Source: an uncultured Dehalococcoidales bacterium (GTDB lineage Bacteria; Chloroflexota; Dehalococcoidia; Dehalococcoidales; UBA2162). From it: a DNA stretch of 55,775 nucleotides. Below, one piece after another: positions 16,991 to 55,775 of the stretch (within the stretch, counting starts at the first letter, position 1; each line of letters starts with the position of its first letter). Below the pieces are notes generated by a model. It did no database searches and was not told the origin of the DNA. It worked only from the letters and a program-made list of their open reading frames with translations. A program made the translations under genes and the position numbers. The stretch is taken from the NCBI GenBank assembly GCA_964543495.1, contig CAZIYN010000001.1:1-55775 (forward strand). Direction: 5' to 3'.

Positions 16991-17012
16991 GGTATACCTC
17001 CTTTCATCTCAG

Positions 17013-17085
17013 AGCGGGAGGGGGGCTTCGAACCCCCATCCTTCTCGCTGGCAACGAGATGCTCTACCCGCTGAGCTTCTCCCGC
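17013..17085 (-). tRNA. tRNA-Gly (anticodon GCC), 73 nt, no encoded CCA
   Basis: The cloverleaf folds by hand: acceptor GCGGGAG/CTCCCGC, D arm GCTC/GAGC, anticodon arm TCTCG-TTGCCAG-CGAGA, T arm GGGGG-TTCGAAG-CCCCC. Bacterial-type. Confidence 0.9.
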
Positions 17086-17577: not shown

Positions 17578-17649
17578 TGGGGCTGCCGGGATTCGAACCC
17601 AGGCATGCTGGTTATGAGCCAGTCGTTCTAATCATTGAACTACAGCCCC
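17578..17649 (-). tRNA. tRNA-Met/Ile2 (anticodon CAT), 72 nt, no encoded CCA
   Basis: Acceptor GGGGCTG/CAGCCCC, D arm GTTC/GAAC, anticodon loop CTCATAA, T arm CTGGG-TTCGAAT-CCCGG. Not initiator-like. Confidence 0.9.
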
Positions 17650-20424: not shown

Positions 20425-21540
20425 TTATTCGTATTTCATCGGCATTATCAGCACTCTCGGGTGGTTGTGGCTGTGGAAGGCAATTGGAGCTGATTGTCCT
20501 GTCCAGGACAGGGTCATCAGCCCTTCCTTCCCGTTGAGGTAGTCAAGGATATACTTGGCATTGATGGCCAGCTTATTCGGAACCCCTTCGGCATTGAGAG
20601 TGCTGATTGAAGATTCTGCCCGAAGATCGCCGTCGCCGGCCCAGATGGTGGCCTGGCTGTCCTTAAAGTCCATCCGGACCATGCCGGCGCCCTCTGATGC
20701 CATGCTCTTGACCCGGTTGATGGCCACCTCGAGCTCCGGGGCATAGAAGCTGGCTTTAAGCACCGGCTCGTCTTTCGGTATGAGCTTCAGGAAGTCCGGG
20801 GGATTGCCCTGGATGAGCTTGACGATGGCCGTCAGCCCCCTGGCGAACCTGAACTGTATACCCTTCTCTCCGTCGACGGAAATGTTAACCATCTTCTTGG
20901 CGGTAAGAGCGGGTATCAGGGCATCGGTCGACAGGGCTGCCCGTGGTGATTTCTTCCACAGGTGCTCGAGGACGGGTATTGATTCCAGCGGCATCACCAG
21001 CGTGCGCTCTTCCGGGAACGAGCCATCCAGCTCGGTATCCGCCATCCGGAACCCGTCGCCGGCGACGGCCTTGATTTTCTCACCCAGCATGAGCGTTATA
21101 CCGTTAAGAACGGCCCGATCGCTTTCCTTGGCCGCGTATTTCCGGAGAGATGCAAGTCCCGGTATCAGGTTATCTCCGTTCAGGTCGGTCTCGGCTGCCG
21201 CGGCGAATTCCGGTACGGCGGGGAAGGTATCCGGGTCCTTGGTGGGGAAGTTGGCGCTGCCGCTCGACCATTTGAGTGACAGGCTCCCCTTCGAGCTCTT
21301 GAACTTGAGCTTTTCGGTCCCGGCTACATACTGCAGGACGTCCATAACCTTCTTGAAGGGAACCAGTGCCTCGATATCGACTTCGGGCAGGGGCATGACG
21401 ACCATGGTGTCCATGTCCGTCGCCACCGCCTTGCCGTCCTTAAGGAGGATACACTTCAGCACTTCGAGAGAAGGCTTCCCGGGTACCGCCGGTTTCAGCA
21501 GGTACATTATATCCCTGAATTTGGATACATATAATTCCAC
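20425..21540 (-). CDS. dnaN: DNA polymerase III beta sliding clamp
   Basis: 371 aa. PSLEVLKCILLKDGKAVATDMDTMVV resembles the TLPIL.nvLl..L.ltaTDle region of DnaN. C-terminus ends PRVLIMPMKYE. Confidence 0.75.
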   Translation of the reverse strand: MELYVSKFRDIMYLLKPAVPGKPSLEVLKCILLKDGKAVATDMDTMVVMPLPEVDIEALVPFKKVMDVLQYVAGTEKLKFKSSKGSLSLKWSSGSANFPTKDPDTFPAVPEFAAAAETDLNGDNLIPGLASLRKYAAKESDRAVLNGITLMLGEKIKAVAGDGFRMADTELDGSFPEERTLVMPLESIPVLEHLWKKSPRAALSTDALIPALTAKKMVNISVDGEKGIQFRFARGLTAIVKLIQGNPPDFLKLIPKDEPVLKASFYAPELEVAINRVKSMASEGAGMVRMDFKDSQATIWAGDGDLRAESSISTLNAEGVPNKLAINAKYILDYLNGKEGLMTLSWTGQSAPIAFHSHNHPRVLIMPMKYE

Positions 21541-21604: not shown

Positions 21605-22012
21605 TTAAAAGAAACTCGGCTGCTTATCGTCAGCCTTCGGCGTTGAATTCTTGGAGCGCTTGGAAGTCGATTTTGTCGCGGCCGGCTGGGGAGCCGGCGG
21701 TTCCGGCAGGTCGGCTTTCGGATATGTCGGGCTCTCGGCCCACTGCTTTTTGGCAGTCTCGACTATTTTCGGGACTCTCTTGAGAGCTGCCGCTAGGGTG
21801 CCCTTGAAGGTCTCGTACACCGGATCGCAGCCCGGGCTCTGGACACCGACCATGTAGTTTTTGCCCCTCGAGTTGATGACGATTTTCAGCTCGTCGAAAT
21901 TCTTCGGCTTCTCCGGCTCTTTGGGCTCTTCGGTTTCTGGAGCCGGTTCTTCAGCCTCTTCCTCTTCTACCTCTTCTTCGTTCTCTTCGACAGTGGTTTC
22001 TTCATCGTCCAT
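21605..22012 (-). CDS. Protein with hyper-acidic N-terminus, 135 aa
   Basis: MDDEETTVEENEEEVEEEEAEEPAPETEE.., then a folded-looking core. Confidence 0.6.
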   Translation of the reverse strand: MDDEETTVEENEEEVEEEEAEEPAPETEEPKEPEKPKNFDELKIVINSRGKNYMVGVQSPGCDPVYETFKGTLAAALKRVPKIVETAKKQWAESPTYPKADLPEPPAPQPAATKSTSKRSKNSTPKADDKQPSFF

Positions 22013-22850
22013 GGGCGTACCTCCTTTCTCTATTATTTTTCGATGTTAGCTCTTTGACTTTTATTCCGAGCATTCGGGCGACCGTTACCGGTTCTGCCGG
22101 CACCACGTGAAGGGTACCGGCTTCCATATCGATATATGCTCCCATCCAGGCTAACTCGCCCTTCATGAGCTTCTCGACGAATTCCAGTACCAGGAATCCC
22201 ATAGCCTGGTTGATCAGCGGGCTCTGCTCGTCCGCAATGACGGCTTCGGCACAGTCCTGCTCCGGCTGCCGTGTTTCCGGCGCCGGCGACAGTAGCCCCG
22301 AAAGCTGTATGGGGGGATACGGCAGCGCCGATACCGTGCCGGCTTTCTCATCGAAAGCTCCCGCCAGATCGGGGAAATGACGGGTATTTCCTATCAGGAC
22401 TTGTCCCGATGAATGACCGTTGCCGGCGTCTATCCACCAGGTAAGCCCGCCGAGGGACTCGGCTATATCCCGCCTGGCGGCGGCGTTGTCGACGCAGCTA
22501 ATTAACAGGCTGTAAATAACGGTCGAGTGCATGCCGCCGCCCATATTCTCCTCGAACATGTCGCCCATGTAGGGGTAGACGCTATACTGGATGGGGCGCC
22601 GGTACTGCCGCGCGAGGCGCTCTGCCAAAACCTGGCTCTTGAACTTACCGATATCCTCTTCGAAGAAATGCTGCCGAAGCAGGTTATGCTGCTCGACCCT
22701 GTCATGGTCGATTAAAAGCAGCTCATACTCCTGTCGGTTTATCAGCAGCCGGCAGAGACCTTCAGCGACGAAACCACCTGTCCCACCACAGCCGACCAGA
22801 GCTATCTTTTTCTTCGCGAAATTCTGCTCTGCAGAGATCCGGAAACTCAT
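22002..22850 (-). CDS. ThiF/MoeB-type E1-like adenylyltransferase (PRTRC ThiF-like)
   Basis: KIALVGCGGTGG Rossmann motif, LIDHDRVEQHNLLRQ, SCVDNAAARRDI. AGGAGG SD. Confidence 0.85.
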   Translation of the reverse strand: MSFRISAEQNFAKKKIALVGCGGTGGFVAEGLCRLLINRQEYELLLIDHDRVEQHNLLRQHFFEEDIGKFKSQVLAERLARQYRRPIQYSVYPYMGDMFEENMGGGMHSTVIYSLLISCVDNAAARRDIAESLGGLTWWIDAGNGHSSGQVLIGNTRHFPDLAGAFDEKAGTVSALPYPPIQLSGLLSPAPETRQPEQDCAEAVIADEQSPLINQAMGFLVLEFVEKLMKGELAWMGAYIDMEAGTLHVVPAEPVTVARMLGIKVKELTSKNNRERRYAHGR

Positions 22851-23445
22851 ACTGGGTTATCACCTCCTCTTCAAGATATTCCTTGGCGCCTTCCAGGGCG
22901 CCGTCGAAGACCTCCGACCATGAAAGGTCGTCGAAATAGCCGTATACGCCGATTCGCAGCCTGATGACCGGGGTTTTCGACAGGTTTCCGACTATTCCAT
23001 AGATCTTCAGACCCGTTTCGTCTTTATCATCCGTATAGCTGAAGCCTATTTTCATCTCGCCGTGGGAGTGCATCTCCAGCACGATTTTATCGCCGGCTTC
23101 ATAAACGATGCCACCTCCGGATTTATCCTGGACCGGGACGTAGAACTTGTATCCGAAGTCTCCCTTCACGGCGACATAATGCTCTATCCGGGTGTCTGTC
23201 ATAAATACGTCGAGGGCGAGGTCGAAGAACCTCCGCGGGATGCTCCCGTAGAGGAGATTCAGCTTCTTATCGATCGGCGGCAGGCCGCGGACCTCGCAGC
23301 GAGCCACCGGTATCCTGGCTGAAATCAGCTTGTTCTCGGCCTCGATGAAGAGACCGTTGCCGGCCAGGATATAGTCGTAGAAGATACCCCTATCGCCGGC
23401 GAGTCCCTCGCCGGTGTTTATCAGATATCCCACCTGTTTTATCAT
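22762..23445 (-). CDS. JAB/JAMM metallopeptidase (PRTRC protein A-like)
   Basis: EMHSHGEMKIGFSYTD matches HxHx7Sx2D. The last 89 nt overlap the E1 gene out of frame. Confidence 0.8.
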   Translation of the reverse strand: MIKQVGYLINTGEGLAGDRGIFYDYILAGNGLFIEAENKLISARIPVARCEVRGLPPIDKKLNLLYGSIPRRFFDLALDVFMTDTRIEHYVAVKGDFGYKFYVPVQDKSGGGIVYEAGDKIVLEMHSHGEMKIGFSYTDDKDETGLKIYGIVGNLSKTPVIRLRIGVYGYFDDLSWSEVFDGALEGAKEYLEEEVITQYEFPDLCRAEFREEKDSSGRLWWDRWFRR

Positions 23446-24128
23446 GCCAGCTCCATCATCATCAGGTCGCTTATTGTCCCGTGCTTGACCAGGTCGTTCT
23501 TCGGGAACGCCTTTTTACCATCGAGGTGAGCCCAGAGGTAAGCGACATTCTTCGGAAACATCCGAGACCGGTTGTGAAGGTCGGCCGTCTCCGTGAAAAA
23601 CGACACGAAGAAGGAATGGGGGATATCGGCTGCCCTCTCCGGATACCGGTGATTGCCCGGGCAGGACCTGCCGCTGTCAAAAATATTGCAGAGCGGCGCC
23701 TTGAAGACCGGGTCCCGCTCTTTCGTCGGTTTCTTTTTCACCGCGTATACCCAGGGCGGTTTGCCCGGCGAGCATAGGAATATGAGCCCGGGCAGGGGTA
23801 TGGTGAAGCGTTTCGGCGGCTTGCCGAGTTCCTTCTGCAGGGCGAGGGTTCGAATCTTCGGTTCCGTGTAGATGGCGAAGAACGGGCCCGCTCTGGTGTT
23901 CTCCCACCAAAGGGTATTCGCCGGCAGGAGTCCGGTACCGAATGACAGCTCGTTGGCCAGTGCCTGAGCCACGTCGAAAGCCGAGACTATCCTAGTGGTC
24001 GTTGTTTCCTCGCCGAAGAAGGTTAAAACGACGGCCTGGTGATGGAAATCCAGCCTGGCTCTCAGCGGATCCGGCGGTATGTTCAGCTCCTCCGGTATCG
24101 CCCATCGATGGGCTGTCCCTATTACCAT
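23442..24128 (-). CDS. E2/UBC-like protein candidate (PRTRC protein B-like)
   Basis: APLCNIFDSGRSCPGNH resembles the UBC hPN(I/V)..G.IC active-site segment. Size and position match PRTRC-B. Confidence 0.55.
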   Translation of the reverse strand: MVIGTAHRWAIPEELNIPPDPLRARLDFHHQAVVLTFFGEETTTTRIVSAFDVAQALANELSFGTGLLPANTLWWENTRAGPFFAIYTEPKIRTLALQKELGKPPKRFTIPLPGLIFLCSPGKPPWVYAVKKKPTKERDPVFKAPLCNIFDSGRSCPGNHRYPERAADIPHSFFVSFFTETADLHNRSRMFPKNVAYLWAHLDGKKAFPKNDLVKHGTISDLMMMELA

Positions 24129-24138
24129 ATGAACCTCC

Positions 24139-24432
24139 TCAATATTCTTCCGGGAAAAGGACGGTAGTTACCGACCTGTCGGCCTCGGTGATTATCCAGA
24201 TTTTCGGGTTCAGCTCGTAGGCTGAGAAAATCCGGAGATTCCCCTCTTTGACTGCCAGGTCGTTTTCCTTCTTGTCGTCTTCCGACATATCTCCCCAGTC
24301 GCCGTTGTAATGGCGATCGAGGCTCTTATTGACGGCAATCCTGAATTGGTCGTCGTCTTCCATCCTTTCCAGGATTCCGGGCGTGACGACCAGCTGTCCG
24401 CCAGGGAATTTACTTCCTACTATTCCGACCAT
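24139..24432 (-). CDS. Conserved small plasmid/phage-type protein, 97 aa
   Basis: GDWGDMSEDDKKEN..IWIITEADRSVTTVLFPEEY recalls a family seen on mobile elements. Function unknown and family name not recalled. Confidence 0.6.
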   Translation of the reverse strand: MVGIVGSKFPGGQLVVTPGILERMEDDDQFRIAVNKSLDRHYNGDWGDMSEDDKKENDLAVKEGNLRIFSAYELNPKIWIITEADRSVTTVLFPEEY

Positions 24433-24444
24433 AATAGACCTCCT

Positions 24445-25392
24445 TTATGTCAGTACTTGGGCGTTTTCATCCAAAGGCAGAGGCATTTGCTCTTTCGGTA
24501 TTATTTCCGTTCCTTTCTCCGCGATTTTAATATCCAGGATAAACTCGAGCAGTTCCTTGAAGCGGGGCTTCAGGTCTTCCTCGAGCCATTCATAGGCTTT
24601 TGTCATCCGTTCATGGTATTCTCTTACGCGGGGCCACTGCTCGGTAAGGTTATCGACGTAGTAGCGGCTCCAGTCCACCATCTCGTAGCCGTCTTCGTAA
24701 TTTGCGTCGAGCTGCCAGCAGTCGGTGGAAGAGAATATCCAGTCGACGACCGCGTTAATCATATCGTAGTCGGTATTGTCCAGCTTCGGGTAGAGCTCGT
24801 GATATCTGAAGCCCCCTTCCGGGATGTGCGATATCAAGCCTTCCCCGACAAGGTCGGCAGCCGCTTCGAGTATCGGTATCCTGGCATCATCCTCTCCCCA
24901 TGGTGGTTCTAACAGGGCTATTATGAGGATAAAACCATCCCTCGATGTGGGCGCCTCGTGGTAGTCGGAGAAGCTGAGACCCATGAGGTTGATGGGTATG
25001 TCCCGGGTAAAGTCCCCCAGAGGAGTCTCGTCGTAGATATAGGTGAAACTGTCGGCCAGCGGGAAGTACCGGTTGGCGAAGTGGTGCATGAACATCCGTA
25101 TCTTATCGGTGTCGCTCATCTGGGCCATGATTGCCGTCTCGTGCTCCGGAAGATATTCTCTTATCAGATCGAGGAACTCTGCGACTGACTCGTAGTTGAG
25201 CAGCCGGTCGATGACGTGGGCGAGGGACGGGGGGCCGGCGATGAGCTTGTGGGCGAGCATGGCGAGCGGAAATACCGGCTCCAGCTCGTCTTCTATCACG
25301 AGAGGCTCTCCCGTCATCATCCGCTGCCTGGCAACGGCCTGCTCGTTAAGGAAACGCAGCGTCTCTAGATCATACATCGTCCTCTTCCTCAT
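24445..25392 (-). CDS. Hypothetical protein, 315 aa (positional equivalent of PRTRC protein F)
   Basis: Minus-strand tiling ORF inside the Ubl cassette. Alternative start at 25377. Confidence 0.6.
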   Translation of the reverse strand: MRKRTMYDLETLRFLNEQAVARQRMMTGEPLVIEDELEPVFPLAMLAHKLIAGPPSLAHVIDRLLNYESVAEFLDLIREYLPEHETAIMAQMSDTDKIRMFMHHFANRYFPLADSFTYIYDETPLGDFTRDIPINLMGLSFSDYHEAPTSRDGFILIIALLEPPWGEDDARIPILEAAADLVGEGLISHIPEGGFRYHELYPKLDNTDYDMINAVVDWIFSSTDCWQLDANYEDGYEMVDWSRYYVDNLTEQWPRVREYHERMTKAYEWLEEDLKPRFKELLEFILDIKIAEKGTEIIPKEQMPLPLDENAQVLT

Positions 25393-25624
25393 CTTTTGCC
25401 GCGGCCATTCTCTTCAGGGAGTCGACTGAAACCATGGTATGGCTGCCGTACATCTTGGCTTCCGCGAGGGCGCGGTTGACTTCCGGCTGGATATTCGCCA
25501 GCCCTTCGTAGTCCACCTCGCCGTCGACGGTGTATTTATTCGCCAGCTCGATAATGAGGAGGCTCTTTTCGGGCACCCTGCCCAGGGCTGTAACGACCCT
25601 GTCGATTTGTTCCGAATCTTTCAT
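25370..25624 (-). CDS. Hypothetical acidic protein, 84 aa
   Basis: TAATG-coupled to the Ubl gene. Confidence 0.6.
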   Translation of the reverse strand: MKDSEQIDRVVTALGRVPEKSLLIIELANKYTVDGEVDYEGLANIQPEVNRALAEAKMYGSHTMVSVDSLKRMAAAKDEEEDDV

Positions 25625-25815
25625 TACCCGCCCTTCGTTCCGACCCGCTTCTTGAACTCGTAGATGGTGTCTTCGCCGCGGGTACTTTCCTTGATTTCGG
25701 CGTTAGCCAGCTCGGGGAAGAATGAAGTCATGGACTGCCTGACTTCTTCCGGCGTGCTGGCGGGGTCCGGGTCCGGGAATTCTCTGCCGTCGTAGACGAA
25801 AATTCTCTTGGTCAT
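25624..25815 (-). CDS. Ubiquitin-like beta-grasp protein ending in Gly-Gly (PRTRC protein C-like)
   Basis: MTKRIFVYDGREFPDPDPASTPEEVRQSMTSFFPELANAEI..IYEFKKRVGTKGG followed directly by the stop. Matches the recalled PRTRC-C pattern R.F.Y.G..LPDP..s.eeVr..yPEl..A.i..Y.F...vGTKG. Confidence 0.7.
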   Translation of the reverse strand: MTKRIFVYDGREFPDPDPASTPEEVRQSMTSFFPELANAEIKESTRGEDTIYEFKKRVGTKGG

Positions 25816-25833
25816 AATCCCTCCTTTCGTCGA

Positions 25834-26019
25834 TTAATCTTCTTTGAGGCACTCCTCGCACTTGAGGACTCTGCCGTATTTAGTCCAGTATAGAGCGGTG
25901 TTAAATTTCAAGCACCATGGCTGTTTTGCGATCGCGTCGTCCAAGTCCGGGCACTCAATGCCTTCTCCGAAGACGCTTGCGTTATAGCAGAACTCGTTCG
26001 TCGGCTTCTCTTTTCTCAC
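25834..26019 (-). CDS. Cys-rich mini-protein, 61 aa
   Basis: GTG 26019 lies 6 nt after AGGAGG. C..CPD..C..CEEC. Confidence 0.5.
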   Translation of the reverse strand: MRKEKPTNEFCYNASVFGEGIECPDLDDAIAKQPWCLKFNTALYWTKYGRVLKCEECLKED

Positions 26020-26111
26020 GATCAACCTCCTTTAAAGCCTTACATCCATTATGCTCAGTGTAATAAGGATAGCCAGGGAGAGAATGAAGGCTATCCACAG
26101 CCAGTTCTTTC

Positions 26112-30818: not shown

Positions 30819-30982
30819 AACATCACCTTCTTTACCTTCTCTTTTTGGACCCGGCCGTCGCCACCATGGTGGATATCGGCGACCTTCTTACCGTCGACCT
30901 TAATCTCGATACCCAGGCTATCAATTTCCTCCCGGGTATGGTCGTTTTTGTGTATTCTATACCATTCTTCAGAGATTAGCAA
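30797..30982 (-). CDS. Hypothetical mini-protein, 61 aa
   Basis: TTG start overlapping the integrase stop. Weak support. Confidence 0.35.
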   Translation of the reverse strand: MLISEEWYRIHKNDHTREEIDSLGIEIKVDGKKVADIHHGGDGRVQKEKVKKVMLWSSQFN

Positions 30983-31742
30983 CGCCGTTTTTCTCCGCTT
31001 TCGCCAGTTCGTCGGACAGCTCCCCGCCGGTGATGAGCAGGTACCTGGCCGTGGTATTTATATTAGCATGTCCCAGGAACTGCTGCACGAAGGCCAGAGA
31101 CATGCCCTTCCGGAGAAGGTCCACCGCCCTGGAGTGGCGGAGCATGTGGGTGCTGACTTCCGGATGCCCGACCCTTCCGCCGAGCTCTTTGAGAGTTTTA
31201 TAATAATAGGTATAGGGGCGCGGGAAAATCCTTCCTTTCTTACCTTTCGCGTATTCGGCGATGACCGGGTAGAAGTCTTTGGTTATCACCTTCAGCCGGT
31301 AGGTCCCGCCCTTGGCCAGGACCATCACGCCGGCAGGGGTGATGTCCTTCTCCTGGATGCCCATCAGCTCGTTGATGCGGCAGCCGAGGGTGAACTGGGT
31401 GAGGACGTACATCCTGTCGTCTTCGTTGTCCGCGGCATCGGCCATCTCTGCCACCGACTCGGGCGGCACGTACCGGATTATTTCATTCCGTATGGGCGTG
31501 AACAACCGGTGAGAGAACGGCCATGGCTCGCCCGGGTTCTTGTACTCGCGGTATGCCTTGATGGCCGCCTTGTGCCGGTGGAGCGAGCTGGCGCTGTAGG
31601 ATTGCAGGAACTTCAGTATCTCCTGGTCCGTGGGCTCTTTGCCCTTGATGTAGGAATTGAGCTGCCAGAGGGTCTGCTCGTAGGCCCGCTGCGTGTTCTG
31701 AGAGAGGCCGGCTATCGACTTGATAAAGTTCCGGATATCCAT
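30969..31742 (-). CDS. int: Tyrosine recombinase/integrase (XerC/D-like)
   Basis: C-terminal HMLRHSRAVDLL..LGHANINTTARYL fits the R..HxxR..Y catalytic set. ATG 31742 is coupled by TAATG to the upstream zinc-ribbon ORF. Confidence 0.9.
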   Translation of the reverse strand: MDIRNFIKSIAGLSQNTQRAYEQTLWQLNSYIKGKEPTDQEILKFLQSYSASSLHRHKAAIKAYREYKNPGEPWPFSHRLFTPIRNEIIRYVPPESVAEMADAADNEDDRMYVLTQFTLGCRINELMGIQEKDITPAGVMVLAKGGTYRLKVITKDFYPVIAEYAKGKKGRIFPRPYTYYYKTLKELGGRVGHPEVSTHMLRHSRAVDLLRKGMSLAFVQQFLGHANINTTARYLLITGGELSDELAKAEKNGVANL

Positions 31743-31897
31743 TACGCAGTACTCCCTATTTCCACCTCGGGTAAAACTTGAGTCGTTCCGCATTTCGTGC
31801 ACTCTAAACGAATCCTGTCATCTGCAGCTGTCGGCGGGAGAATAATAAACTTTTTCTTTTCTCTACATACAAAACAATAGTAATTCCGGATATACAT
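31742..31897 (-). CDS. Zinc-ribbon mini-protein, 51 aa (below cutoff), coupled to the integrase
   Basis: GAGGT SD. MYIRNYYCFVCREKK..LECTKCGTTQ. Confidence 0.5.
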   Translation of the reverse strand: MYIRNYYCFVCREKKKFIILPPTAADDRIRLECTKCGTTQVLPEVEIGSTA

Positions 31898-35876: not shown

Positions 35877-36090
35877 TGCTAGCCCCCTCTTTTATCGCGC
35901 TGACAAACCTCTCTACCCCGAATAATACCATCAGGGTGGTCATTATTATCTCGGTTATGAGGACCGGCTGGTTATCTTCGTATATCATCACCTTGCCTTT
36001 GAGCTTTATCATGATTAAGTGAAATAGAACCCACCCGCATGATAAAATAACCAGTAGCCCGCTTATGACGTTTTTCATTACACTCCCCAC
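35869..36090 (-). CDS. Two-TM membrane protein, 73 aa
   Basis: Two hydrophobic helices. Confidence 0.6.
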   Translation of the reverse strand: MGSVMKNVISGLLVILSCGWVLFHLIMIKLKGKVMIYEDNQPVLITEIIMTTLMVLFGVERFVSAIKEGASNE

Positions 36091-37637
36091 TGCTCGCCTT
36101 CATCCGGCGGCAGGCCTTCTTTACGGAATATGCCTTCCAATTCGAATACCGAGCCGGCTACAAAGTTAGGCCCTGTAACTAAGGCGAGGTCAATCCGTGT
36201 AATAGCATTTAAGCTCTCCCATCGATTGGATTGAACGACAACAATATTCTCCTGCCTCCCGTGAAAAGAAATACAATGTTTATGCCTATCTGTCTCCGCA
36301 TACGACGGAAATATAAATAAGCCTCCACCGAATTCCCCTACGCCCTCATTAGCCGCTGGGCATTTTAACCAATCTTGTATAGCAAGATTTCGGTCGGATG
36401 TCACCACGGCGCCGCTTCCATATAGCCTTTGCCGGTCGTAATTCGCAACGACGGCATCTCCATTAATAGTAATAGCGATATCATCATCAAGCGCCGCCTT
36501 ATCCGATCTCGCATAGACGTTAATCTGCAGAGCTTCGAAGTTCTGGGAAATATTATCAAACGTGACAGTAGCTGTGTCCTCGGTCAGCTCTACCCTCTCG
36601 ATTATCCGCTTCGGTACCCGGTAAAGGGAGAATAAACTGCCTGCTTTGAAGTCTGTGCCATTGTTAGGCTCGTAACTTAATTTATTTATAGGTTCCGAAT
36701 TGTCTCTTCTGCCTGAACGCAGGTCAATAACACCCGTTGGTGCGGAACTCTCATGGAAACCTGTAATATTAAACAAGTGAGGCTGATTAGCCTTTGTGTA
36801 TTGTGATACTATCGAAATTAAAGAACCATACACACTGGCAGTAGCATTTACCGCAGGACAATCACCAATAATTCGGTTATTTTGGCTAACAGAAGAAACA
36901 GCTGCGCCTACCCCTCGTAATTGCTGGTTATAATAATTTGCATTTATGCTGTCTTCATTAATATTTATATTAATTGAATCCGTAACACCAACTCGGTCAC
37001 TTCTACAATAACCCACTACCGCCAAATTGCCTTCTCCCTGGGGAATATTATCAAAGACAGGTAGTCCAGCTCCTCCTGCCAAATCCACTTCTTCTACCAG
37101 GTAGCGCTCGTCTACTACTCCCAGATGGAAGGTGCTACCAGCTTGCATATTGCCTGAATTAGCGTAAACTTCAATAGAAGTAATCGCATTTACGTTTGAC
37201 CATCTTCCAGTGGTAACTTGAACTGTGGTTTCCAATGAACCGGTTAAGGACAAAAAAGCTTTCTGGTTACTTGTATTGAAGGCGTGGGGAAAAATAAGAA
37301 TACCACCGCTATAGGCATTAGCAATGTTCGTTCCATTAAAAAGGCCACTGTGGGCATAAGAAGTTGAATCATATCTACTAGCCGCAGCCGCAGCGGCCGT
37401 TCCTCTGATTTCTTGGCTAGAGTAATTATTTCCTCCATCGCCGTTTAATCTGAAGGCTATCCATCGGTCAGCCGCATCCGAGGCCGCTGCATTAATTAGT
37501 ATTACTAGATGCCTTGAAGTAATATGCTGCCGGGCATCCCAGGCTGCCACCAGGTCATCGATATTCGAGAAAGTGACACTGGCCTGGTCAGTCTCTATCT
37601 GAATTGTCTGAAGTATCTTTACAGGTGCATTAAGCAT
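36078..37637 (-). CDS. Triple-repeat beta-rich protein, 519 aa (paralog B)
   Basis: Three modules of about 170 aa each carry VTF.NI.Q..L...R.D....NGD....NY..Q.L.G.G ... RW....AIT.I.L....G.NF.AGS.F.L.G. Confidence 0.75.
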   Translation of the reverse strand: MLNAPVKILQTIQIETDQASVTFSNIDDLVAAWDARQHITSRHLVILINAAASDAADRWIAFRLNGDGGNNYSSQEIRGTAAAAAASRYDSTSYAHSGLFNGTNIANAYSGGILIFPHAFNTSNQKAFLSLTGSLETTVQVTTGRWSNVNAITSIEVYANSGNMQAGSTFHLGVVDERYLVEEVDLAGGAGLPVFDNIPQGEGNLAVVGYCRSDRVGVTDSINININEDSINANYYNQQLRGVGAAVSSVSQNNRIIGDCPAVNATASVYGSLISIVSQYTKANQPHLFNITGFHESSAPTGVIDLRSGRRDNSEPINKLSYEPNNGTDFKAGSLFSLYRVPKRIIERVELTEDTATVTFDNISQNFEALQINVYARSDKAALDDDIAITINGDAVVANYDRQRLYGSGAVVTSDRNLAIQDWLKCPAANEGVGEFGGGLFIFPSYAETDRHKHCISFHGRQENIVVVQSNRWESLNAITRIDLALVTGPNFVAGSVFELEGIFRKEGLPPDEGEQWGV

Positions 37638-39181
37638 CAGTCTATTGCCATCCCTTCATCCGGAGGGAGCCCCTCCACGCGCAGTATTCCTTCGAGTTCA
37701 ATCACCGTGCCGGCAAGGAAGTTAGGGCCATTCAGTGGGGCTATTGAGATAGATGTTATTGCATCGGTAAGCATATAGATATCCGATACTATGAAGACAG
37801 AATTGTCCGAATTGCCGTAAAGACCGAAACAGTGTTTGTAACGGTCGGTTTCAGCATATCCCGGAAATATCAGGGTGCCGCCGTCGAACTCTCCCGCGGG
37901 ACCCGTGCCGCTTACCAGCATCCAATCCTGGTCGGCATTGGTTCTTACCGCGGTAACCACGGCGCCAAACCCGTAGAGCTCCTGGGTGCTGTAATGAGCT
38001 GCAATACCATCCCCATTTATCGTAAATCTCACCGGGTCGCTGCCGGCTGCCCGGTCGGTCTTTGCATAGACGTGGAGAATAAGAGCTTCGAAGTTCTGGG
38101 GGATATTACTGATAGTAATGGAGGCCGCGGCAGCGTCCAGCTCTACCCGCTCGATAATTCGTTTCGGCACACGGTAGAGGGAGAAAAGCGAGCCAGTTAC
38201 GAAATTCGTGCCGGCATTGGGCTGATAGACTATCTTATTAACAGGCTCATCATTGGCTCTCATTCCACTCATAGTCCGAACCTCAGCCGTAGGTCCCGTG
38301 CTTTCGTGATATCCGCTTAATGATAGAAAATGAGGATGGTTACCTTTAATATACTGAGAGTAAACCGCTACAAGGGCGCCGAATACATTGGCCGTGGCAT
38401 TGGCGCCGCTGACCATACCTATTTCCTGGTTTACAGGAGATGCCGCCGCGGTAACCGCTGCCCTGGCCGTTAACTCCTGAGCAGGATAATTGCCGGCCGT
38501 CGTATCGTCGTTAATTGAATGCAGAACCTCATCTTCGACGGCCGCACCATCTGTTCGAGCGTATCCTATTAACACCAGGTCACCCTCCCCTTGGGGAATA
38601 TTATCAAATATAGCTGTCGCTGTCGGAGTTAATTCTTCCACCAGATAACGCTCGTCAATAACACCCAGGTGGAACGTGGAGCCGGCAAGGAAATTACCGG
38701 TGGTGCCCAGCAGAAGACTGATTATCGCGTTCGCGCTTGCCCACCTCCCAGCAGTCCCCTGCACCGAATAATCAGTTCCACCTCCCAGTGTCAAAATAGC
38801 CTTATGATTGACAGTATTGAAGGCGTGGGGAATGAGAATGACACCGCCGCCAAAAGAAGTAGCGCCCCAGGACGCTGCGGGTATCATTGAGGCATTATAA
38901 GCCGGCACACCGTCATTCCTTTGAGCAGCAGCCACAGCCGCTGTCCCAGTTATTTCCTGCCGGTTGTAAGTATTGCCAGAATCACCATTGAGTAGAATAT
39001 ATAAATCCCGCTGGGAAACAGCATCCTCACCAGCTGCGTTGATAATAACGACAAGGTGTCTGCTGGTTACCCGAGCGAGAGCATCCCACTCTGCTACTAG
39101 GTCGTCTATATCTGAGAAGGTGACAGTAGCCTGAGCAGTTTCTATCTCGATGGATTGCAGTATCTTTATTGGAAGGTTCAT
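37637..39181 (-). CDS. Triple-repeat beta-rich protein, 514 aa (paralog A)
   Basis: Colinear with 36078-37637. Same three-module architecture. Confidence 0.75.
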   Translation of the reverse strand: MNLPIKILQSIEIETAQATVTFSDIDDLVAEWDALARVTSRHLVVIINAAGEDAVSQRDLYILLNGDSGNTYNRQEITGTAAVAAAQRNDGVPAYNASMIPAASWGATSFGGGVILIPHAFNTVNHKAILTLGGGTDYSVQGTAGRWASANAIISLLLGTTGNFLAGSTFHLGVIDERYLVEELTPTATAIFDNIPQGEGDLVLIGYARTDGAAVEDEVLHSINDDTTAGNYPAQELTARAAVTAAASPVNQEIGMVSGANATANVFGALVAVYSQYIKGNHPHFLSLSGYHESTGPTAEVRTMSGMRANDEPVNKIVYQPNAGTNFVTGSLFSLYRVPKRIIERVELDAAAASITISNIPQNFEALILHVYAKTDRAAGSDPVRFTINGDGIAAHYSTQELYGFGAVVTAVRTNADQDWMLVSGTGPAGEFDGGTLIFPGYAETDRYKHCFGLYGNSDNSVFIVSDIYMLTDAITSISIAPLNGPNFLAGTVIELEGILRVEGLPPDEGMAID

Positions 39182-39182
39182 C

Positions 39183-39422
39183 TTACACCCCTATCGTGAG
39201 TTCTTCGTCTCTCTTTATCTTGAAGGGGCCTCCTCCGAAAGTAATTCCATCTGTTTCGATATGGATTACTGTCGCAATAGGACCCCAGTCCGCGGCTACA
39301 GTTTTACTCACACGCCCGTTCTCATCAGTCGTAAATTCTGTATTTATCGTCTCTCCCAGGGTAACCTTTGCGCCTATTAAAGGCTCACCGTTTTTTAATA
39401 ACTGAATACTCGCTATTGCCAT
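39183..39422 (-). CDS. Small beta-sandwich-like protein, 79 aa
   Basis: Minus-strand tiling ORF with Ig/CarbReg-like alternation. Confidence 0.55.
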   Translation of the reverse strand: MAIASIQLLKNGEPLIGAKVTLGETINTEFTTDENGRVSKTVAADWGPIATVIHIETDGITFGGGPFKIKRDEELTIGV

Positions 39423-39673
39423 TATTGACCTCCGTTAGTTTCTCCAGGCATCGCCCGCCTGAAGTAGAACTGGAATATCAGGGTTCCGATAACTATAAAG
39501 AACTGTGTCACTCCTCCGAGCCCAAGCCCGGTAAGGAGTGCCATCAAAGGGTCGAGTGTGTCAGGGTTATTCGTTACCAGCTTCGTGAATATTACTATTG
39601 CGAATACCAGCCAGATAAGTAGTACCCCGCAGTATACCAATGCCAGGATATCTCTGAAATTCTTTATTCTCAT
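39422..39673 (-). CDS. Two-TM membrane protein, 83 aa
   Basis: Two hydrophobic helices. Confidence 0.6.
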   Translation of the reverse strand: MRIKNFRDILALVYCGVLLIWLVFAIVIFTKLVTNNPDTLDPLMALLTGLGLGGVTQFFIVIGTLIFQFYFRRAMPGETNGGQ

Positions 39674-39681
39674 TTTACCTC

Positions 39682-39912
39682 CTAGTTCGGAGTACTCGTC
39701 GGAGAAGTGGCTACAGTGACACCAATAGCTTCAGCATCATTTCCATCATCCACCGATGTCTCAGTATCGTCGGTTACGGATGCCCTGGTAGGAGATCCGT
39801 AATTTTTGTTTATATCGACGCCTATCTCGGTTAATTTCCGGTAACTATGGGTGTGAGCATCGAAGACCGCATGGCTAACGCCGGAGGCTACCTCTTCCGT
39901 TTGCTTGGCCAT
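39682..39912 (-). CDS. Small protein, 76 aa (N-terminus paralogous to 39921-40214)
   Basis: MAKQTEEVASG compared with MAKQTAEVITP. Confidence 0.55.
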   Translation of the reverse strand: MAKQTEEVASGVSHAVFDAHTHSYRKLTEIGVDINKNYGSPTRASVTDDTETSVDDGNDAEAIGVTVATSPTSTPN

Positions 39913-39920
39913 TACTTCTC

Positions 39921-40214
39921 CTATGACTCGGCGACGTCTTCGTAATCGTATTCCATATTGCCGGCTGCATTGCGGTGTATACCGTAAATCTTGTATTCTC
40001 CGCTCTGCGGGTCGCTAACCATAATCTGCCGGTCGGCGTCGGCCAGCCCCATAACCGCAGTCTGAATCTCGGCTCCAGTCAGGTCCGCAGTCGCGTTATC
40101 TTCTATTCCGGAGAGCTTCGTCTGCTCGGTTGCAGACATCCGCTTGTAGGTAGACCCGTCCGGAATCCCGTCCAGATCTGAAGGAGTAATTACCTCTGCT
40201 GTCTGTTTTGCCAT
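39921..40214 (-). CDS. Small protein, 97 aa (C-terminus paralogous to 40227-40463)
   Basis: SDPQSGEYKIYGIHRNAAGNMEYDYEDV compared with SDPPSGGYKILNIWRNAAGNLEYEYEDT. Confidence 0.55.
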   Translation of the reverse strand: MAKQTAEVITPSDLDGIPDGSTYKRMSATEQTKLSGIEDNATADLTGAEIQTAVMGLADADRQIMVSDPQSGEYKIYGIHRNAAGNMEYDYEDVAES

Positions 40215-40226
40215 TGTCTTCCTCCT

Positions 40227-40463
40227 TTATGGCTCGGGCGTATCTTCATATTCGTATTCCAGGTTGCCCGCAGCGTTTCTCCATATATTCAATATTTTAT
40301 AACCACCGCTGGGAGGGTCGCTTATCAGATGTAGCCCTTCAAGGATTTCCTTTACTCTCTCATCTCGAACGGCATCCGTGCTGAGACCTCTACCAGTATA
40401 GCTTGCTCCTCCAATATCGTTTTCTCTTCCACTTGTCATATTTTCCTCTACAAGTGATTCCAT
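40227..40463 (-). CDS. Small protein, 78 aa (paralog)
   Basis: See 39921-40214. Confidence 0.55.
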   Translation of the reverse strand: MESLVEENMTSGRENDIGGASYTGRGLSTDAVRDERVKEILEGLHLISDPPSGGYKILNIWRNAAGNLEYEYEDTPEP

Positions 40464-43036
40464 ACCTTTATGTTTCCGCCTCTCAATACACAGGCAGTAG
40501 CAACAGCTCCATTATCGATTGATAATACCCAGTAACAGGCTCCCGCAGCTGCCCCTGATGGGATATTAGCCACAGTGGTAATGCTGCCTTTATATTGGTC
40601 GTTGACATAGAAACGGACTTCTACCCCGGGTATGTGAACCATCCTGACGCGATATACATATAGAGCGGTCATAGTTGTATTGAGATTAACCGTCGATCTT
40701 CCGGCATTAAAGGATTCTCCGTAGATATCGTAATTCTGTATTTCTATACCCAGTCCATCGGCTGCCAGAACTCCTTCTCCATTTGCTTGTTTGAGCTGGA
40801 ATCTACCTCTGATATCAGCATGCGAACCAGCATCCCTTGACAGGTCAATAGCATATTCTATTCGATTATCGAAATGAACCCTGTCCCACTGACCTGCGCC
40901 ATCGAAGGACGAATTCACCATTACACCCGGACAATGGAAAAGTCCATGGTCGCCTCCGGCAGCTGCGCAGGATACCTCGGCAAACGTCGTATATAACGTG
41001 CCTCCTCCTGTTCCTCCATGATTGGCCGTCCATAGAGAATTGATAGGCACCTGGAATGACCTTCCCTGCCTTTCTAATAGCTCCATAACGAATTCCGGAG
41101 TGGCGAAGATGGGATTGTCTTCCTGGTATTCAGTTATTCCATACCTCTTTATAATCCGCGTGAGAGCCGGGTTAAGAGGTCTCTCCTCTTCCAGCCTTAC
41201 CACCGGTTGCCCGGGGAAATTGGTAACGCCATGGTCGGGATTGATAATCGTCGAGAAGAGGCCGTTTATAGTGATATTATGCAAGTTCGAATTCGTAGCG
41301 AACTGGATATCCACCAGCCCCGCGTCTACATCGAAATCCCTCAGTATCCAGCCGTCCTGTGCCCCGGCAGTTATTACCGGTGTTACTCCATCAAGCGTGA
41401 TCCGGGTTGATAGTCCAGCACCGAATATTTCCACGTCATCTATTGCCCTGAGTACTTGAGCGGTAAGGGCAAAAGTGCCATACCCGAGTTCAATCTTTCC
41501 TCCGCCGACTGACAAAGCATTCAGGGCATGCTGGATCTGCATGCCGGAATGAACCTGGAAGTGTCCCGGGTCTTTCCTCAAAACAACGTTTGCGTTTGCC
41601 AGGTTGACGGTACTGCCGGCAGTGGTTTCATCCGAGTCGCCATCAAGCTCTATTAATCCGGAAGCGGCTACCTCGAATAATGAGACTTGCTGGCCAGCCC
41701 ACCTGTTTCCACCTCCGGAAATAGTGGCTGCTGCGATATTAACATACATCATCACGCCCTGGTCACAGGTGAAATCGTTTCCGATAAGGATACCATCCGC
41801 AGCGGCTGTATCAACATGTATGAGATGGAATCCGGCGGCGCCACTGGCAATATTACCGTAGTTATGCTTAAGGCTGAAATTTCCACCACCGGTTATATCC
41901 CATACCTGATGAGCAAAAGCGCCAGGCGTAATGATTTCTATTCTTACTCTTTCGAAGGTAAAAGAAGCCGCAGCTCCGCCGTCAGTGATGAGGGTTCGAG
42001 CCTGCGACGGGCTGTCGAGCTGGATGGTCACGTTTTCGATTTCCTGGTAACCAGCTGCTAAGGTGATTATATCATCGTCATCAAACTGGTAGAGCCGGAC
42101 AGCATTCCCCGGCCCTATACCTTTCAAATGAACATAGGTATTCATGGTGATGTTTTCGTTATAGATTCCAGGATGTATAAGGACAGTATAAGGATTCGCC
42201 GCCGCGGGTACCGGAGCATCGGCAGCCGCCATGTCAATAGCGTCCTGTATCCACATCCCTTCGTAAACTTCGTATTGCTGTTTCCCGTTTTTAAGGCAGA
42301 CAGTACCGCCCACGATATTTTCAGCCGCCTCGGTAGTTACCGAATCATTGTTGAAAACGATGGTTCCATTGGTAACGCTGAACATACGACCAGTGCCGGC
42401 CCATCGATTTCCGCCTCCGGTTATGGTGCTTGCCACCAGGCAGAGCACATGGGTAGAGTTGGCATTCTGGAAGGTGAAATTATTGTTTATCAGGTGGATA
42501 GTTGCAGGGTTATTCTGGCTGGTAACGGTATAAGATCCTCCGGTACCTCCGATATTGTGATAGCAATTCTCTACCCGGAGGTCCGTCCCATTTCCTTCAA
42601 TAACAAAAACATTGATTACTACTGCGCCCGGTGTGGTCACCTCGAAAATCACATTTCGAAGGACAGTACTGACTGCAGCAGCACCATCCCGGACATGTGC
42701 ACGCCCCCCTGCCGGGGTGCCCATACGCAGAGTAACATTCTCAACTTCACCATCGTCAATAGTGAGAATATTATTATCGTTCTGGTATATGACAACAGAT
42801 CCGGAAGGGCCCATACCCTTCAGGTGAACGTTAGCTGCCATGGTGATAGTTTCGTCGTAAATGCCAGGCCATATCTGCACTGTATAAGGAGCCGCGGCTG
42901 ATGGTGCCGGCACCGCCTGCGTAGCGCACCAGTTAATTGCCGCCTGAATCGTTATAAATTCCGACAGACCGCCCGGGGCAATGCCTACCCGCACAGTTCG
43001 CGGCATTCTTTTCAGTTTAGCGTCTATCTCTGCCAT
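40448..43036 (-). CDS. Spike/depolymerase-like protein with two beta-helix domains, 862 aa
   Basis: The internal duplication PYTVQIWPGIYDETITMAANVHLKGMGP / PYTVLIHPGIYNENITMNTYVHLKGIGP is typical of pectate-lyase-fold entry segments. Confidence 0.55.
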   Translation of the reverse strand: MAEIDAKLKRMPRTVRVGIAPGGLSEFITIQAAINWCATQAVPAPSAAAPYTVQIWPGIYDETITMAANVHLKGMGPSGSVVIYQNDNNILTIDDGEVENVTLRMGTPAGGRAHVRDGAAAVSTVLRNVIFEVTTPGAVVINVFVIEGNGTDLRVENCYHNIGGTGGSYTVTSQNNPATIHLINNNFTFQNANSTHVLCLVASTITGGGNRWAGTGRMFSVTNGTIVFNNDSVTTEAAENIVGGTVCLKNGKQQYEVYEGMWIQDAIDMAAADAPVPAAANPYTVLIHPGIYNENITMNTYVHLKGIGPGNAVRLYQFDDDDIITLAAGYQEIENVTIQLDSPSQARTLITDGGAAASFTFERVRIEIITPGAFAHQVWDITGGGNFSLKHNYGNIASGAAGFHLIHVDTAAADGILIGNDFTCDQGVMMYVNIAAATISGGGNRWAGQQVSLFEVAASGLIELDGDSDETTAGSTVNLANANVVLRKDPGHFQVHSGMQIQHALNALSVGGGKIELGYGTFALTAQVLRAIDDVEIFGAGLSTRITLDGVTPVITAGAQDGWILRDFDVDAGLVDIQFATNSNLHNITINGLFSTIINPDHGVTNFPGQPVVRLEEERPLNPALTRIIKRYGITEYQEDNPIFATPEFVMELLERQGRSFQVPINSLWTANHGGTGGGTLYTTFAEVSCAAAGGDHGLFHCPGVMVNSSFDGAGQWDRVHFDNRIEYAIDLSRDAGSHADIRGRFQLKQANGEGVLAADGLGIEIQNYDIYGESFNAGRSTVNLNTTMTALYVYRVRMVHIPGVEVRFYVNDQYKGSITTVANIPSGAAAGACYWVLSIDNGAVATACVLRGGNIKVWNHL

Positions 43037-44261: not shown

Positions 44262-44855
44262 TTACCCCATTATTATCGGCAGTAAATCACCATAGAGGTC
44301 GGACCGTGACCCTTCTCCGGATAGCGTCGTAAAAGTGACGTCCTGACCGTAGCCCTCTCCGTACTTATTTCTGGCCACGGCCCTGTAATGGTAGCTCTTC
44401 CCTCCGGAGAGCGGACCTACAATATCATAAAATGTGGACCCGGTGACAGCACCACTAACCCACTGTGTTTCATTTCCGTAATTCGAGGTCCCGCCATACT
44501 GGAATTTCGTCTGGCAGCCACCTCCCCTGTCATTAACTATCTGCCCGTTGAGCTGTGCATCATGCTCCCCTATCACGGAAGCATCAAGAGTTATAACATC
44601 GGGGGGCTCTCCGGGAGTCACGAAGCTCATAATGGCGCCATAGGTAGTCCCCACGGCATTCCGCGCAATAGCCATAAAATAAACTGTGACATTACCGCTG
44701 GGCACTAGCACAGTCTCGGAAAAGGCCATGCCGGTGTAGAAGGGCGTTTGCCACGCAGTATAATAAGTCGGCCCGCCGACGGTCCACGCGAAACATACAT
44801 CGCAGGGAAGCCCACCATCATCTGTCAGTGTCCCGTTTAATTTTGCAGTTGCCAT
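44262..44855 (-). CDS. Protein with two FN3-like domains, 197 aa
   Basis: Two occurrences of Y..(A/R)(I/V)ARN..G..YG....F(V/T)T. Confidence 0.5.
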   Translation of the reverse strand: MATAKLNGTLTDDGGLPCDVCFAWTVGGPTYYTAWQTPFYTGMAFSETVLVPSGNVTVYFMAIARNAVGTTYGAIMSFVTPGEPPDVITLDASVIGEHDAQLNGQIVNDRGGGCQTKFQYGGTSNYGNETQWVSGAVTGSTFYDIVGPLSGGKSYHYRAVARNKYGEGYGQDVTFTTLSGEGSRSDLYGDLLPIIMG

Positions 44856-55704: not shown

Positions 55705-55726
55705 GGGGGGTCGCCGGCGACCCCCC
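55705..55726 (-). terminator. Rho-independent terminator GGGGGGTCGCC/GGCGACCCCCC plus U6
   Basis: 22-nt perfect palindrome followed on the minus strand by GTTTTTT. The right arm lies in the terminal repeat. Confidence 0.8.
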
Positions 55727-55775
55727 TTACTGATTTTAGTAATATCAGAAATATTTCATAATGTCAAGTCGAAGA
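55721..55775. repeat. Terminal direct repeat copy 2
   Basis: Identical to 1-55. Confidence 0.95.
55739..55767 (-). promoter_or_regulatory. Candidate promoter TTGACA-N17-TATTAC just upstream of the terminator (also present at 19-47)
   Basis: Read on the minus strand. The -10 lacks the final T. The predicted start is about 6 nt before the hairpin. Confidence 0.4.

Follow-up and report, generated by a model that had tools for sequence, protein, structure and literature searches.

A ubiquitin-like protein of the PRTRC protein C family with one glycine beyond the family terminus, encoded in a putative Chloroflexota mobile element

Related systems and the element carrying the cassette

Families of bacterial operons combining genes for E1, E2, JAB and ubiquitin-like (Ubl) proteins were predicted by Iyer, Burroughs & Aravind 2006, with operon type '6d' among them (PMC1779556). 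In type 6d, the E2 protein contains a conserved Cys and a His located C-terminal to it, the JAB protein combines an intact JAMM site with an N-terminal extension in which an Arg (and a Trp) is conserved, and a fast-evolving alpha-helical protein is also encoded (PMC1779556). Proteins with 2-3 Ub-like domains, referred to as 'bacterial polyUbl', belong to type 6e, which is a separate operon family. Literature searches with the terms PRTRC, Prok_Ub, PF14454 and 6D operon retrieved annotation mentions only, and no mechanistic or experimental work. In the Bil system, BilC, a JAB protein from Ensifer aridi, removes a single residue from BilA by a cut between G97 and A98, before the activation by E1 (10.1101/2023.09.26.559546).

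The window, by which we mean the whole stretch of 55,775 nucleotides analysed here, is identical in its first and last 55 nt, which indicates that it represents an assembled circle of about 55.7 kb. The genes of the element include one for a tyrosine recombinase and two for tRNAs, and relatives of its Ubl cassette are located in metagenome-assembled genomes of Dehalococcoidia/Chloroflexota, complete chromosomes among them, and in four IMG/VR contigs. This distribution suggests that it is an integrative mobile element or a temperate phage of that lineage; PHROGs and Pfam recognized no genes for a capsid, portal or terminase in the element.

The cassette shares with the PRTRC/6d systems the DPDP and FPEL.NA motifs and the G-x-K-G end of the Ubl, an E2 protein with the Cys...His arrangement, a JAB protein, a ThiF-like E1 and a fast-evolving protein of about 300 amino acids. 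The gene order also agrees with that on the Azospira plasmid pAZI09, and a dnaN-like gene is located nearby in both. The window differs in that its host belongs to the Chloroflexota, whereas the described systems are from Proteobacteria, Cyanobacteria and Firmicutes, and in that its Ubl ends with an additional Gly and is encoded in tight coupling with the gene for small84, a helical protein of 84 amino acids. On these comparisons of sequence and gene content, the window cassette belongs, as a divergent member, to a known family that was defined by computation, and its host lineage is new to that family.

Like Bil, the cassette encodes a bacterial Ubl with separate E1, E2 and JAB proteins, and Bil provides a precedent for the removal of a one-residue cap (10.1101/2023.09.26.559546). 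However, the E1 of Bil is a multidomain protein, and Bil is a host defence system, while the window cassette is part of a mobile element, in its replication region. Type II CBASS (Cap2/Cap3) also has E1/E2 chemistry and a JAB peptidase on mobile or defence islands, but there the E1 and E2 are fused and the CD-NTase, rather than a Ubl, is conjugated; the window contains no CD-NTase. A search with PADLOC gave no match to the Bil and CBASS type II profiles for the Ubl, E2 and JAB proteins and no defence-system membership, and only the nucleotide-binding region of the E1 matched the E1-E2 models, and BilD weakly.

The Ubl gene and its neighbours

The genes of the cassette are all located on the minus strand in the order Ubl, small84, p315, p97, E2, JAB, E1, p135 and DnaN-like clamp, as follows:

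25820 to 25825, minus strand: strong Shine-Dalgarno sequence (AGGAGG) that precedes the ATG of the Ubl gene by 4 nt, as read from the sequence
25624 to 25815, minus strand: Ubl gene (PRTRC protein C / Prok_Ub), 63 aa, ending in G59-T60-K61-G62-G63 and then TAA
25622 to 25626, minus strand: TAATG stop/start overlap of the Ubl and small84 genes; the small84 ATG at 25622-25624 shares one base with the TAA
25370 to 25624, minus strand: small84, an 84-aa helical protein directly downstream of the Ubl, which in many relatives forms an in-frame extension of the Ubl C-terminus
24445 to 25392, minus strand: p315, a conserved 315-aa protein, by position the counterpart of the 'novel alpha-helical protein' / PRTRC_F
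24139 to 24432, minus strand: p97, a small accessory gene between p315 and E2, at varying positions among relatives
23442 to 24128, minus strand: E2-like protein (Prok-E2_D; best NCBIfam match PRTRC_B) with Cys156 and His160
22762 to 23445, minus strand: JAB/JAMM metallopeptidase (best NCBIfam match PRTRC_A) with E88, H126-S-H128, S136 and D139 complete
22002 to 22850, minus strand: E1-like adenylating enzyme of the ThiF family (best NCBIfam match PRTRC_ThiF)
21605 to 22012, minus strand: p135, an acidic low-complexity 135-aa protein, conserved beside the E1 gene
20425 to 21540, minus strand: DnaN-like sliding clamp gene, a conserved neighbour of the cassette

The Ubl open reading frame, read on the minus strand from 25815 to 25624, translates to MTKRIFVYDGREFPDPDPASTPEEVRQSMTSFFPELANAEIKESTRGEDTIYEFKKRVGTKGG. 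The protein ends in ...KRVGTKGG, with the final codons ACG AAG GGC GGG TAA (T60, K61, G62, G63 and stop), of which the stop codon occupies positions 25624-25626. This agrees with an earlier reading of the DNA, made from the letters alone and here called the sequence-only reading, which had described an ORF that stops right after GTKGG and a stop codon that overlaps the next start codon as TAATG. It had also recognized PRTRC protein C from a PDPDP/EEVR/PEL pattern and suggested an alignment to TIGR03738, and both hold. The motifs FPDPDP (residues 13-18), PEEVRQ (22-27) and FPEL (33-36) are present and conserved in the family (alignments A1 and A2), and the protein matches TIGR03738 (PRTRC_C, NCBIfam) with 53.6 bits (E=1.8e-14) against a curated cut-off of 45.95, as well as PF14454 (Pfam Prok_Ub) with 54.3 bits (E=1.2e-14; cut-off 25). 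Since 522 homologs were also found at E<=1e-3, the ORF is not due to chance. Judged by these matches, the Ubl is PRTRC system protein C / Prok_Ub of operon type '6d'.

The AF2 model of the Ubl, based on an alignment of 29 sequences, has a mean pLDDT of 87 and the order beta-beta-alpha-alpha-beta-beta. Residues 56-63 are modelled without secondary structure, and the final residues have a pLDDT of about 50. The model thus predicts a beta-grasp-like fold with a free C-terminal tail; a buried C-terminus had been named as evidence against the sequence-only reading. A Foldseek search of the Ubl model against PDB gave no match at E<=0.001, and the weaker matches (E 0.25-1.4) include protein L B1, PB1 and SUMO domains, which are of the beta-grasp type. 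No related solved structure was found in a PDB sequence search with the Ubl.

The enzymes of the cassette fall under the curated cut-offs of the PRTRC families, in which respect they differ from the described systems. The E2 protein scores 65.7 bits with PF14460 and 56.2 bits with TIGR03737 (cut-off 131.45), and its residues C156 and H160, which form a C-x3-H arrangement, are present in 32 and 29 of 33 relatives, respectively. For the JAB protein, the scores are 45.5 bits with TIGR03735 (cut-off 101.8) and 18.2 bits with PF14464 (cut-off 25). The residues E88, H126, S127, H128, S136 and D139 of its motif are at least 93% conserved in 32 sequences and R53 is present in 30 of these, while the N-terminal part showed no conserved Trp within the clade of the window. 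The E1 protein matches TIGR03736 with 103.8 bits (cut-off 144.75) and PF00899 with 61.5 bits, and contains the conserved residues G20-C-G-G-T-G25, R59, K71, D121, C119 and C200. With their catalytic residues conserved in about 30 relatives, all three enzymes look active.

The remaining proteins are less readily assigned. No NCBIfam match (PRTRC_E, PRTRC_F) was obtained for p135 and p315, nor any Pfam match for p315, and pairwise BLAST comparisons with the Azospira counterparts gave no similarity for p135 (against PRTRC_E), p315 (against the 339-aa protein at the PRTRC_F position) and small84. Despite this, the window has position-equivalents of both PRTRC_E and PRTRC_F, and p315 is present in every related locus with enough flanking sequence. 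Homologs of p97 are located at other positions in the loci L001, L007, L009, L013, L015 and L046. A match to ParB/ParBc, another family of the described PRTRC systems, whose TIGRFAMs name stands for ParB-related, ThiF-related cassette, was absent from the scanned ORFs, which included all five ORFs of at least 400 aa and those flanking the cassette. The DnaN-like clamp scores 86.2 bits with TIGR00663 (cut-off 137.65) and matches phrog_947 at 2.5e-45.

The small84 protein has no Pfam, NCBIfam or PHROG match. Its AF2 model, with a pLDDT of 92, is all-helical and contains a C-terminal helix of 37 residues, and the Foldseek search of this model against PDB gave no fold match at all. An SD-like AAGGG sequence formed by the K61-G62 codons sits 6 nt upstream of the small84 ATG, and in about 10 related loci the stop and start codons of the two genes likewise abut or overlap (TAGTG, TAGATG, TAAATG, GGATGA). 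The TAATG junction represents one state of a split or fused Ubl-small84 pair, which implies coupled, near-stoichiometric synthesis of the two proteins. From the layout of the genes, Ubl and small84 look translationally coupled and resemble a split version of the gene that is fused in relatives, and small84 may serve as a cofactor, as an adaptor or as the first substrate. The possibility that a Ubl-small84 fusion is made by a programmed -1 frameshift at GGC-GGG-TAA was considered and rejected: there is no X-XXY-YYZ slippery site, and the genes of most relatives are cleanly separate.

The terminal glycine and tails in relatives

The two terminal codons of the Ubl gene are placed as follows:

25630 to 25632, minus strand: GGC codon of Gly62, the family-conserved terminal Gly and putative reactive residue
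25627 to 25629, minus strand: GGG codon of Gly63, an extra one-residue C-terminal cap outside the family profile

Residues 3-62 of the Ubl align to positions 6-66 of the 66 positions in TIGR03738, and the profile is thus complete at residue 62, which places G63 beyond the family model. The same boundary is seen in the close set, which consists of the 120 closest of the 522 homologs (69-88% identical). Here, 109 of the proteins stop exactly at the Gly equivalent to G62 (...VG[TV]KG), nine have one extra residue past this site (E in six, G in two, K in one), one ends in KGCTI, and the remaining one continues into a fused Cys-rich tail. Since 109 of the 120 stop at this Gly and only two end in GG, G63 is an extra residue. 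In alignment A1, which contains 29 diverse sequences, A39, G59 and K61 do not vary and the conservation of G62 is at least 90%, and the family keeps a constant spacing between the last beta-strand and the terminal Gly (xxRVGTKG). The G-x-K-G motif at the C-terminal end of the family is thus present in the Ubl of the window as G59, K61 and G62, with G63 following it. Curated proteobacterial PRTRC_C proteins end in ...VGTKG (Azospira) and ...FGDKG (P. aeruginosa megaplasmid), and others carry short tails, as in ...AGAKG-AHARI (C. necator pHG1) and ...AGAKG-SHA (B. cenocepacia).

A conserved GG of the kind found in Ubls of the ubiquitin/ThiS/MoaD type is thus not a feature of these homologs, in which the penultimate residue is the invariant Lys. 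The best explanation of the alignments is that the reactive end of the family is a single Gly after this Lys, which would be G62 in the window, and that the GG is coincidental. The sequence-only reading, in which the Gly-Gly end makes the protein conjugation-ready, is not supported as stated by this comparison, since the window Ubl is one residue longer than the family end. It was right that there is no long propeptide, but G63 itself lies one residue past the canonical end. Homologs that consistently extend past the GG had been named as evidence against that reading. The closest homologs mostly end one Gly earlier, and longer forms are common across the wider family, as among the loci retrieved from GTDB.

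These GTDB loci were found by two peptide patterns and are mostly from one phylum, and 20 of the 34 complete ones extend past the conserved Gly, by 1-77 residues. The tail is absent in 14 loci, one residue long in five (E, S, A, R, G), 2-3 residues in three and 7-11 residues in five, while the remaining seven have an in-frame fusion of the Ubl to a small84 homolog, with a tail of 73-77 aa. Of the best 150 cluster representatives at 50% identity, 27 join the Ubl to a small84 homolog and others have Zn-ribbon-like tails, although such representatives are possibly skewed towards the longest member of a cluster, which would inflate the share of extended forms. Homology to small84 was detected in 27 of 72 long Ubl tails, and a Ubl protein of 146 aa on a Chroococcidiopsis plasmid also contains a long small84-like tail. 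The one-residue caps across the family are E, G, K, S, A, R, N, D and Q, and a Gly follows the conserved Gly in 12 of approximately 138 extended representatives. Such variation, with Gly not clearly favoured, is as expected if the cap is removed. KGG ends arose at least three times, in the window, in the homolog P0108 and in the GTDB locus L037. An assembly error was considered as the source of the extra GGG codon; KGG ends recur in unrelated contigs.

We also identified 19 poly-Ubl proteins, which consist of 2-7 head-to-tail units of about 57 aa, each ending in G[TV]KG. The residue that follows each unit is mostly A, S or M, and every complete poly-Ubl is capped by 1-19 aa. In all four poly-Ubl loci with enough flanking sequence, genes of the PRTRC_ThiF and PRTRC_A types follow downstream, joined in two of the loci by a PRTRC_B-type E2; viral-contig scans with two poly-Ubl proteins gave nothing useful. 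A PRTRC-type JAB is present in every extended-Ubl locus with enough flanking DNA, and the whole cassette is kept in all Chloroflexota loci with enough flanking sequence, irrespective of the tail type. The poly-Ubl and Ubl-small84 precursor forms of the PRTRC_C family are not mentioned in the literature searched.

The forms of the PRTRC_C family, with capped head-to-tail poly-Ubls, partner fusions and monomers with one extra residue, resemble those of eukaryotic ubiquitin precursors. However, the PRTRC_C terminus is T-K-G rather than R-G-G, the protein is a minimal beta-grasp of about 55 residues, and there is no detectable sequence homology to ubiquitin. The fusions also differ, in that the partner is a helical protein of 75-85 aa rather than a ribosomal protein, and in that the processing is presumably by a JAMM enzyme. 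Polyubiquitin-like and Ubl-fusion precursors are thus encoded by bacteria and mobile elements, which bears on the evolution of ubiquitin precursor architecture.

Proposed processing, conjugation and role of JAB

We lean, by a little, towards the explanation that the Ubl of the window is a K-G-terminated protein with a one-residue Gly cap, and that JAB serves in both processing and deconjugation. The JAMM peptidase would cut after G62 and so remove G63, and in relatives the cut after G-x-K-G would remove short tails, free the Ubl from the small84 fusions and split the poly-Ubls into monomers. The ThiF-like E1 would adenylate G62 and probably form a thioester, for which C200 is the candidate cysteine, and the Ubl would then be transferred to Cys156 of the E2, with His160 assisting, and attached to lysines of target proteins, for which small84, p315 and the adjacent DnaN-like clamp are candidates. 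These steps, from the JAMM cut through the lysine attachment, are drawn from the family comparison and from established E1/E2/JAMM chemistry. The same JAB may also reverse the conjugation.

A maturation role for JAB in the family is suggested because cleavage after G-x-K-G is needed in a large share of its members and JAB is the sole peptidase that travels with the Ubl. From this co-occurrence, we infer that JAB is the processing peptidase of the family for fusions and poly-Ubls, and it probably trims G63 from the Ubl of the window. The opinion in the sequence-only reading that JAB is not needed for maturation therefore fails at the family level, where 20 of 34 loci are extended and the 27 fusions and 19 poly-Ubls must be accounted for. 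Its proposal that JAB acts as a deconjugase or editing enzyme fares better: all relatives with a Ubl that stops at the conserved Gly still encode JAB, where the contig reaches far enough, and since no trimming is needed in these, JAB must have a further role, most simply deconjugation. Deconjugation is thus plausible, but it is not the only likely role, and the family-wide comparison suggests that JAB is a precursor-processing enzyme and likely also a deconjugase. For the window itself the outcome is modest, in that the family member was correctly recognized and its GG ending over-interpreted.

Several other explanations of the ending were weighed against the removal of a Gly cap. The Ubl might be made conjugation-ready, with E1 activating the carboxylate of G63 directly and JAB serving as a deconjugase or editing enzyme only. 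In favour of this, the ORF stops straight after GG and encodes no propeptide, a free tail is predicted, KGG ends have appeared independently in P0108 and L037, Gly is the least disruptive extra residue, and the retention of JAB in loci that need no processing indicates a role other than maturation. Set against this are the fixed distance from the last strand to the conserved Gly, the 109 of 120 close homologs that are one residue shorter, and the infrequency of a second Gly, both in the close set and among the extended representatives. For ubiquitin and its E1 enzymes, one additional C-terminal residue normally prevents activation, which also speaks against the direct use of G63, and the precursors seen across the family imply that a peptidase cutting after G-x-K-G is present within the system. 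Direct activation of G63 is therefore a possible but doubtful reading. The GGG codon might instead be kept for nucleotide reasons, with G63 neutral as protein, if it sets an optimal distance for coupling between the SD-like AAGGG and the small84 ATG. This distance is 6 nt with the codon and would be about 3 nt without it, as in L011 and L012, and the abutting or overlapping junctions in related loci fit such a coupling. Yet L011, L012, L017, L018, L023 and L036 couple both genes without the extra codon, and a spacing effect would account for the codon but not for the fate of the residue, which makes it an unlikely explanation.

It is highly improbable that the Ubl is a sulfur carrier on which E1 makes a C-terminal thiocarboxylate, with no protein conjugation. 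The cassette resembles ThiS/MoaD with ThiF/MoeB in having a small beta-grasp protein with a C-terminal Gly and a ThiF-family adenylating enzyme. However, ThiS and MoaD end in GG and carry sulfur, whereas the Ubl of the window has a K-G end, and an E2 with Cys156/His160 and a JAMM peptidase are strictly co-conserved with it. Furthermore, the cassette is located on a mobile element, the scanned neighbouring ORFs include no recognized gene for a sulfurtransferase or for cofactor biosynthesis, and poly-Ubl and fusion precursors would be senseless for a sulfur carrier.

Under the favoured explanation, in which G63 is a removable cap, the identity of the reactive residue matters for experiments: constructs should end at G62, and the remnant expected from conjugates after trypsin digestion would be one Gly (+57 Da), not diGly. 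A broader and rather unlikely proposal is that PRTRC/6d is a Ubl system of mobile elements with the full set of eukaryote-style precursors (capped monomers, partner fusions and polyubiquitin-like genes) cut by JAB, in which the split small84 would be an obligatory cofactor or first substrate and the DnaN-like clamp the physiological target. If this were true, modification of the clamp would control the replication of the element and would be a bacterial counterpart to the ubiquitination/SUMOylation of PCNA. The DnaN-like gene adjoins the cassette in most Chloroflexota loci, and also in the Azospira and Pseudomonas plasmids.

Precursor forms in the Ubl family

The PRTRC_C family, to which the Ubl of the window belongs, includes polyubiquitin-like precursors that consist of two to seven units of ~57 aa placed head-to-tail. 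Every unit terminates in G[TV]KG, and the last one is followed by a cap at the C-terminus (N, I, DRA, KLAK, VKLAK, ISLEK and others). These precursors are represented by the homologous proteins P0121, P0122, P0125, P0130, P0132, P0153, P0167, P0180, P0245 and P0262, and by genes in four related loci:

L052, 7422-8684, poly-Ubl gene
L056, 7797-8375, poly-Ubl gene
L057, 2363-3490, poly-Ubl gene
L059, 7995-8375, poly-Ubl gene

Downstream of the poly-Ubl gene, each of the four loci contains genes of the PRTRC_ThiF and PRTRC_A types; two loci additionally contain an E2 of the PRTRC_B type there. No description of polyubiquitin-like PRTRC_C precursors was found in the literature searched.

In-frame fusions of the Ubl to a homolog of small84, the 84-aa helical protein of the cassette, are widespread among the relatives (loci L014, L019, L024, L027, L032, L033 and L034), and account for 27 of the 150 best representatives of the 50%-identity clusters (P0121-P0270), while the two proteins are in split form in the window. 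A Chroococcidiopsis plasmid protein (L064, 298-735) is also a Ubl fusion, with a tail whose homology to small84 was judged by eye only. The Ubl-small84 fusions resemble the eukaryotic ubiquitin-ribosomal-protein fusion genes.

Short tails past the conserved glycine (AHARNPS, AHARSLS, AHARI, SHA, AFPHPQS, AFTHTCN) are found in Ubls from loci L020, L021, L063 and L065 and in proteins P0136, P0142 and P0184. Tails of similar sequence recur across distant lineages and may represent a conserved type of short propeptide. In P0128, P0137, P0143, P0144 and P0081, Cys-rich, zinc-ribbon-like tails are fused straight onto the Ubl C-terminus. A Cys-rich ORF is also located just upstream of the Ubl gene in the window:

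25834-26025 (-), 63-aa Cys-rich (zinc-ribbon-like) ORF

Loci L004-L006 contain a small ORF at the equivalent position, with a weak match to PknG_rubred.

Form and gene content of the element

The window ends are identical over 55 nt (1-55 and 55721-55775), and the contig is, as judged from these ends, an assembled circle and a complete element of ~55.7 kb. The GC content is 52%, and nearly all genes are on the minus strand. Two tRNA genes and a tyrosine recombinase suggest an integrative element or a temperate phage; however, PHROGs and Pfam identified no capsid, portal or terminase. No family match was obtained for the 514-, 519- and 862-aa proteins at 36078-43036.

1033-1866 (-), PAPS-reductase-like protein (phrog_424)
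8520-9782 (-), AAA_25/KaiC-like ATPase
17012-17085 (-), tRNA-Gly(GCC)
17578-17649 (-), tRNA-Met(CAT)
30969-31802 (-), tyrosine recombinase
44855-45940 (-), LVIVD-repeat protein
51355-52650 (-), InlB B-repeat protein

Inserts and a DnaN-like clamp gene at the cassette

The cassette is broken up between the p315 and E2 genes by a 97-aa ORF whose product contains GDWGDMSEDDKKEN and, further on, IWIITEADRSVTTVLFPEEY, and has a DnaN-like clamp gene as a neighbor:

24139-24432 (-), 97-aa ORF
20425-21540 (-), DnaN-like sliding-clamp gene

In related loci, homologs of the 97-aa ORF vary in position, and some lie outside the cassette. In other relatives (L004 and L066), a DUF2958 gene is inserted directly after the Ubl gene. 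Small mobile inserts can therefore be accommodated in the cassette. The DnaN-like clamp gene is a conserved neighbor of PRTRC-type cassettes in Chloroflexota elements and proteobacterial plasmids (Azospira pAZI09 and a P. aeruginosa megaplasmid), and is present in L061 (5025-6152), L062 (13972 onward) and most of L001-L047. From this conservation, the Ubl system may be connected with the replication clamp of the element, in analogy to the modification of PCNA.
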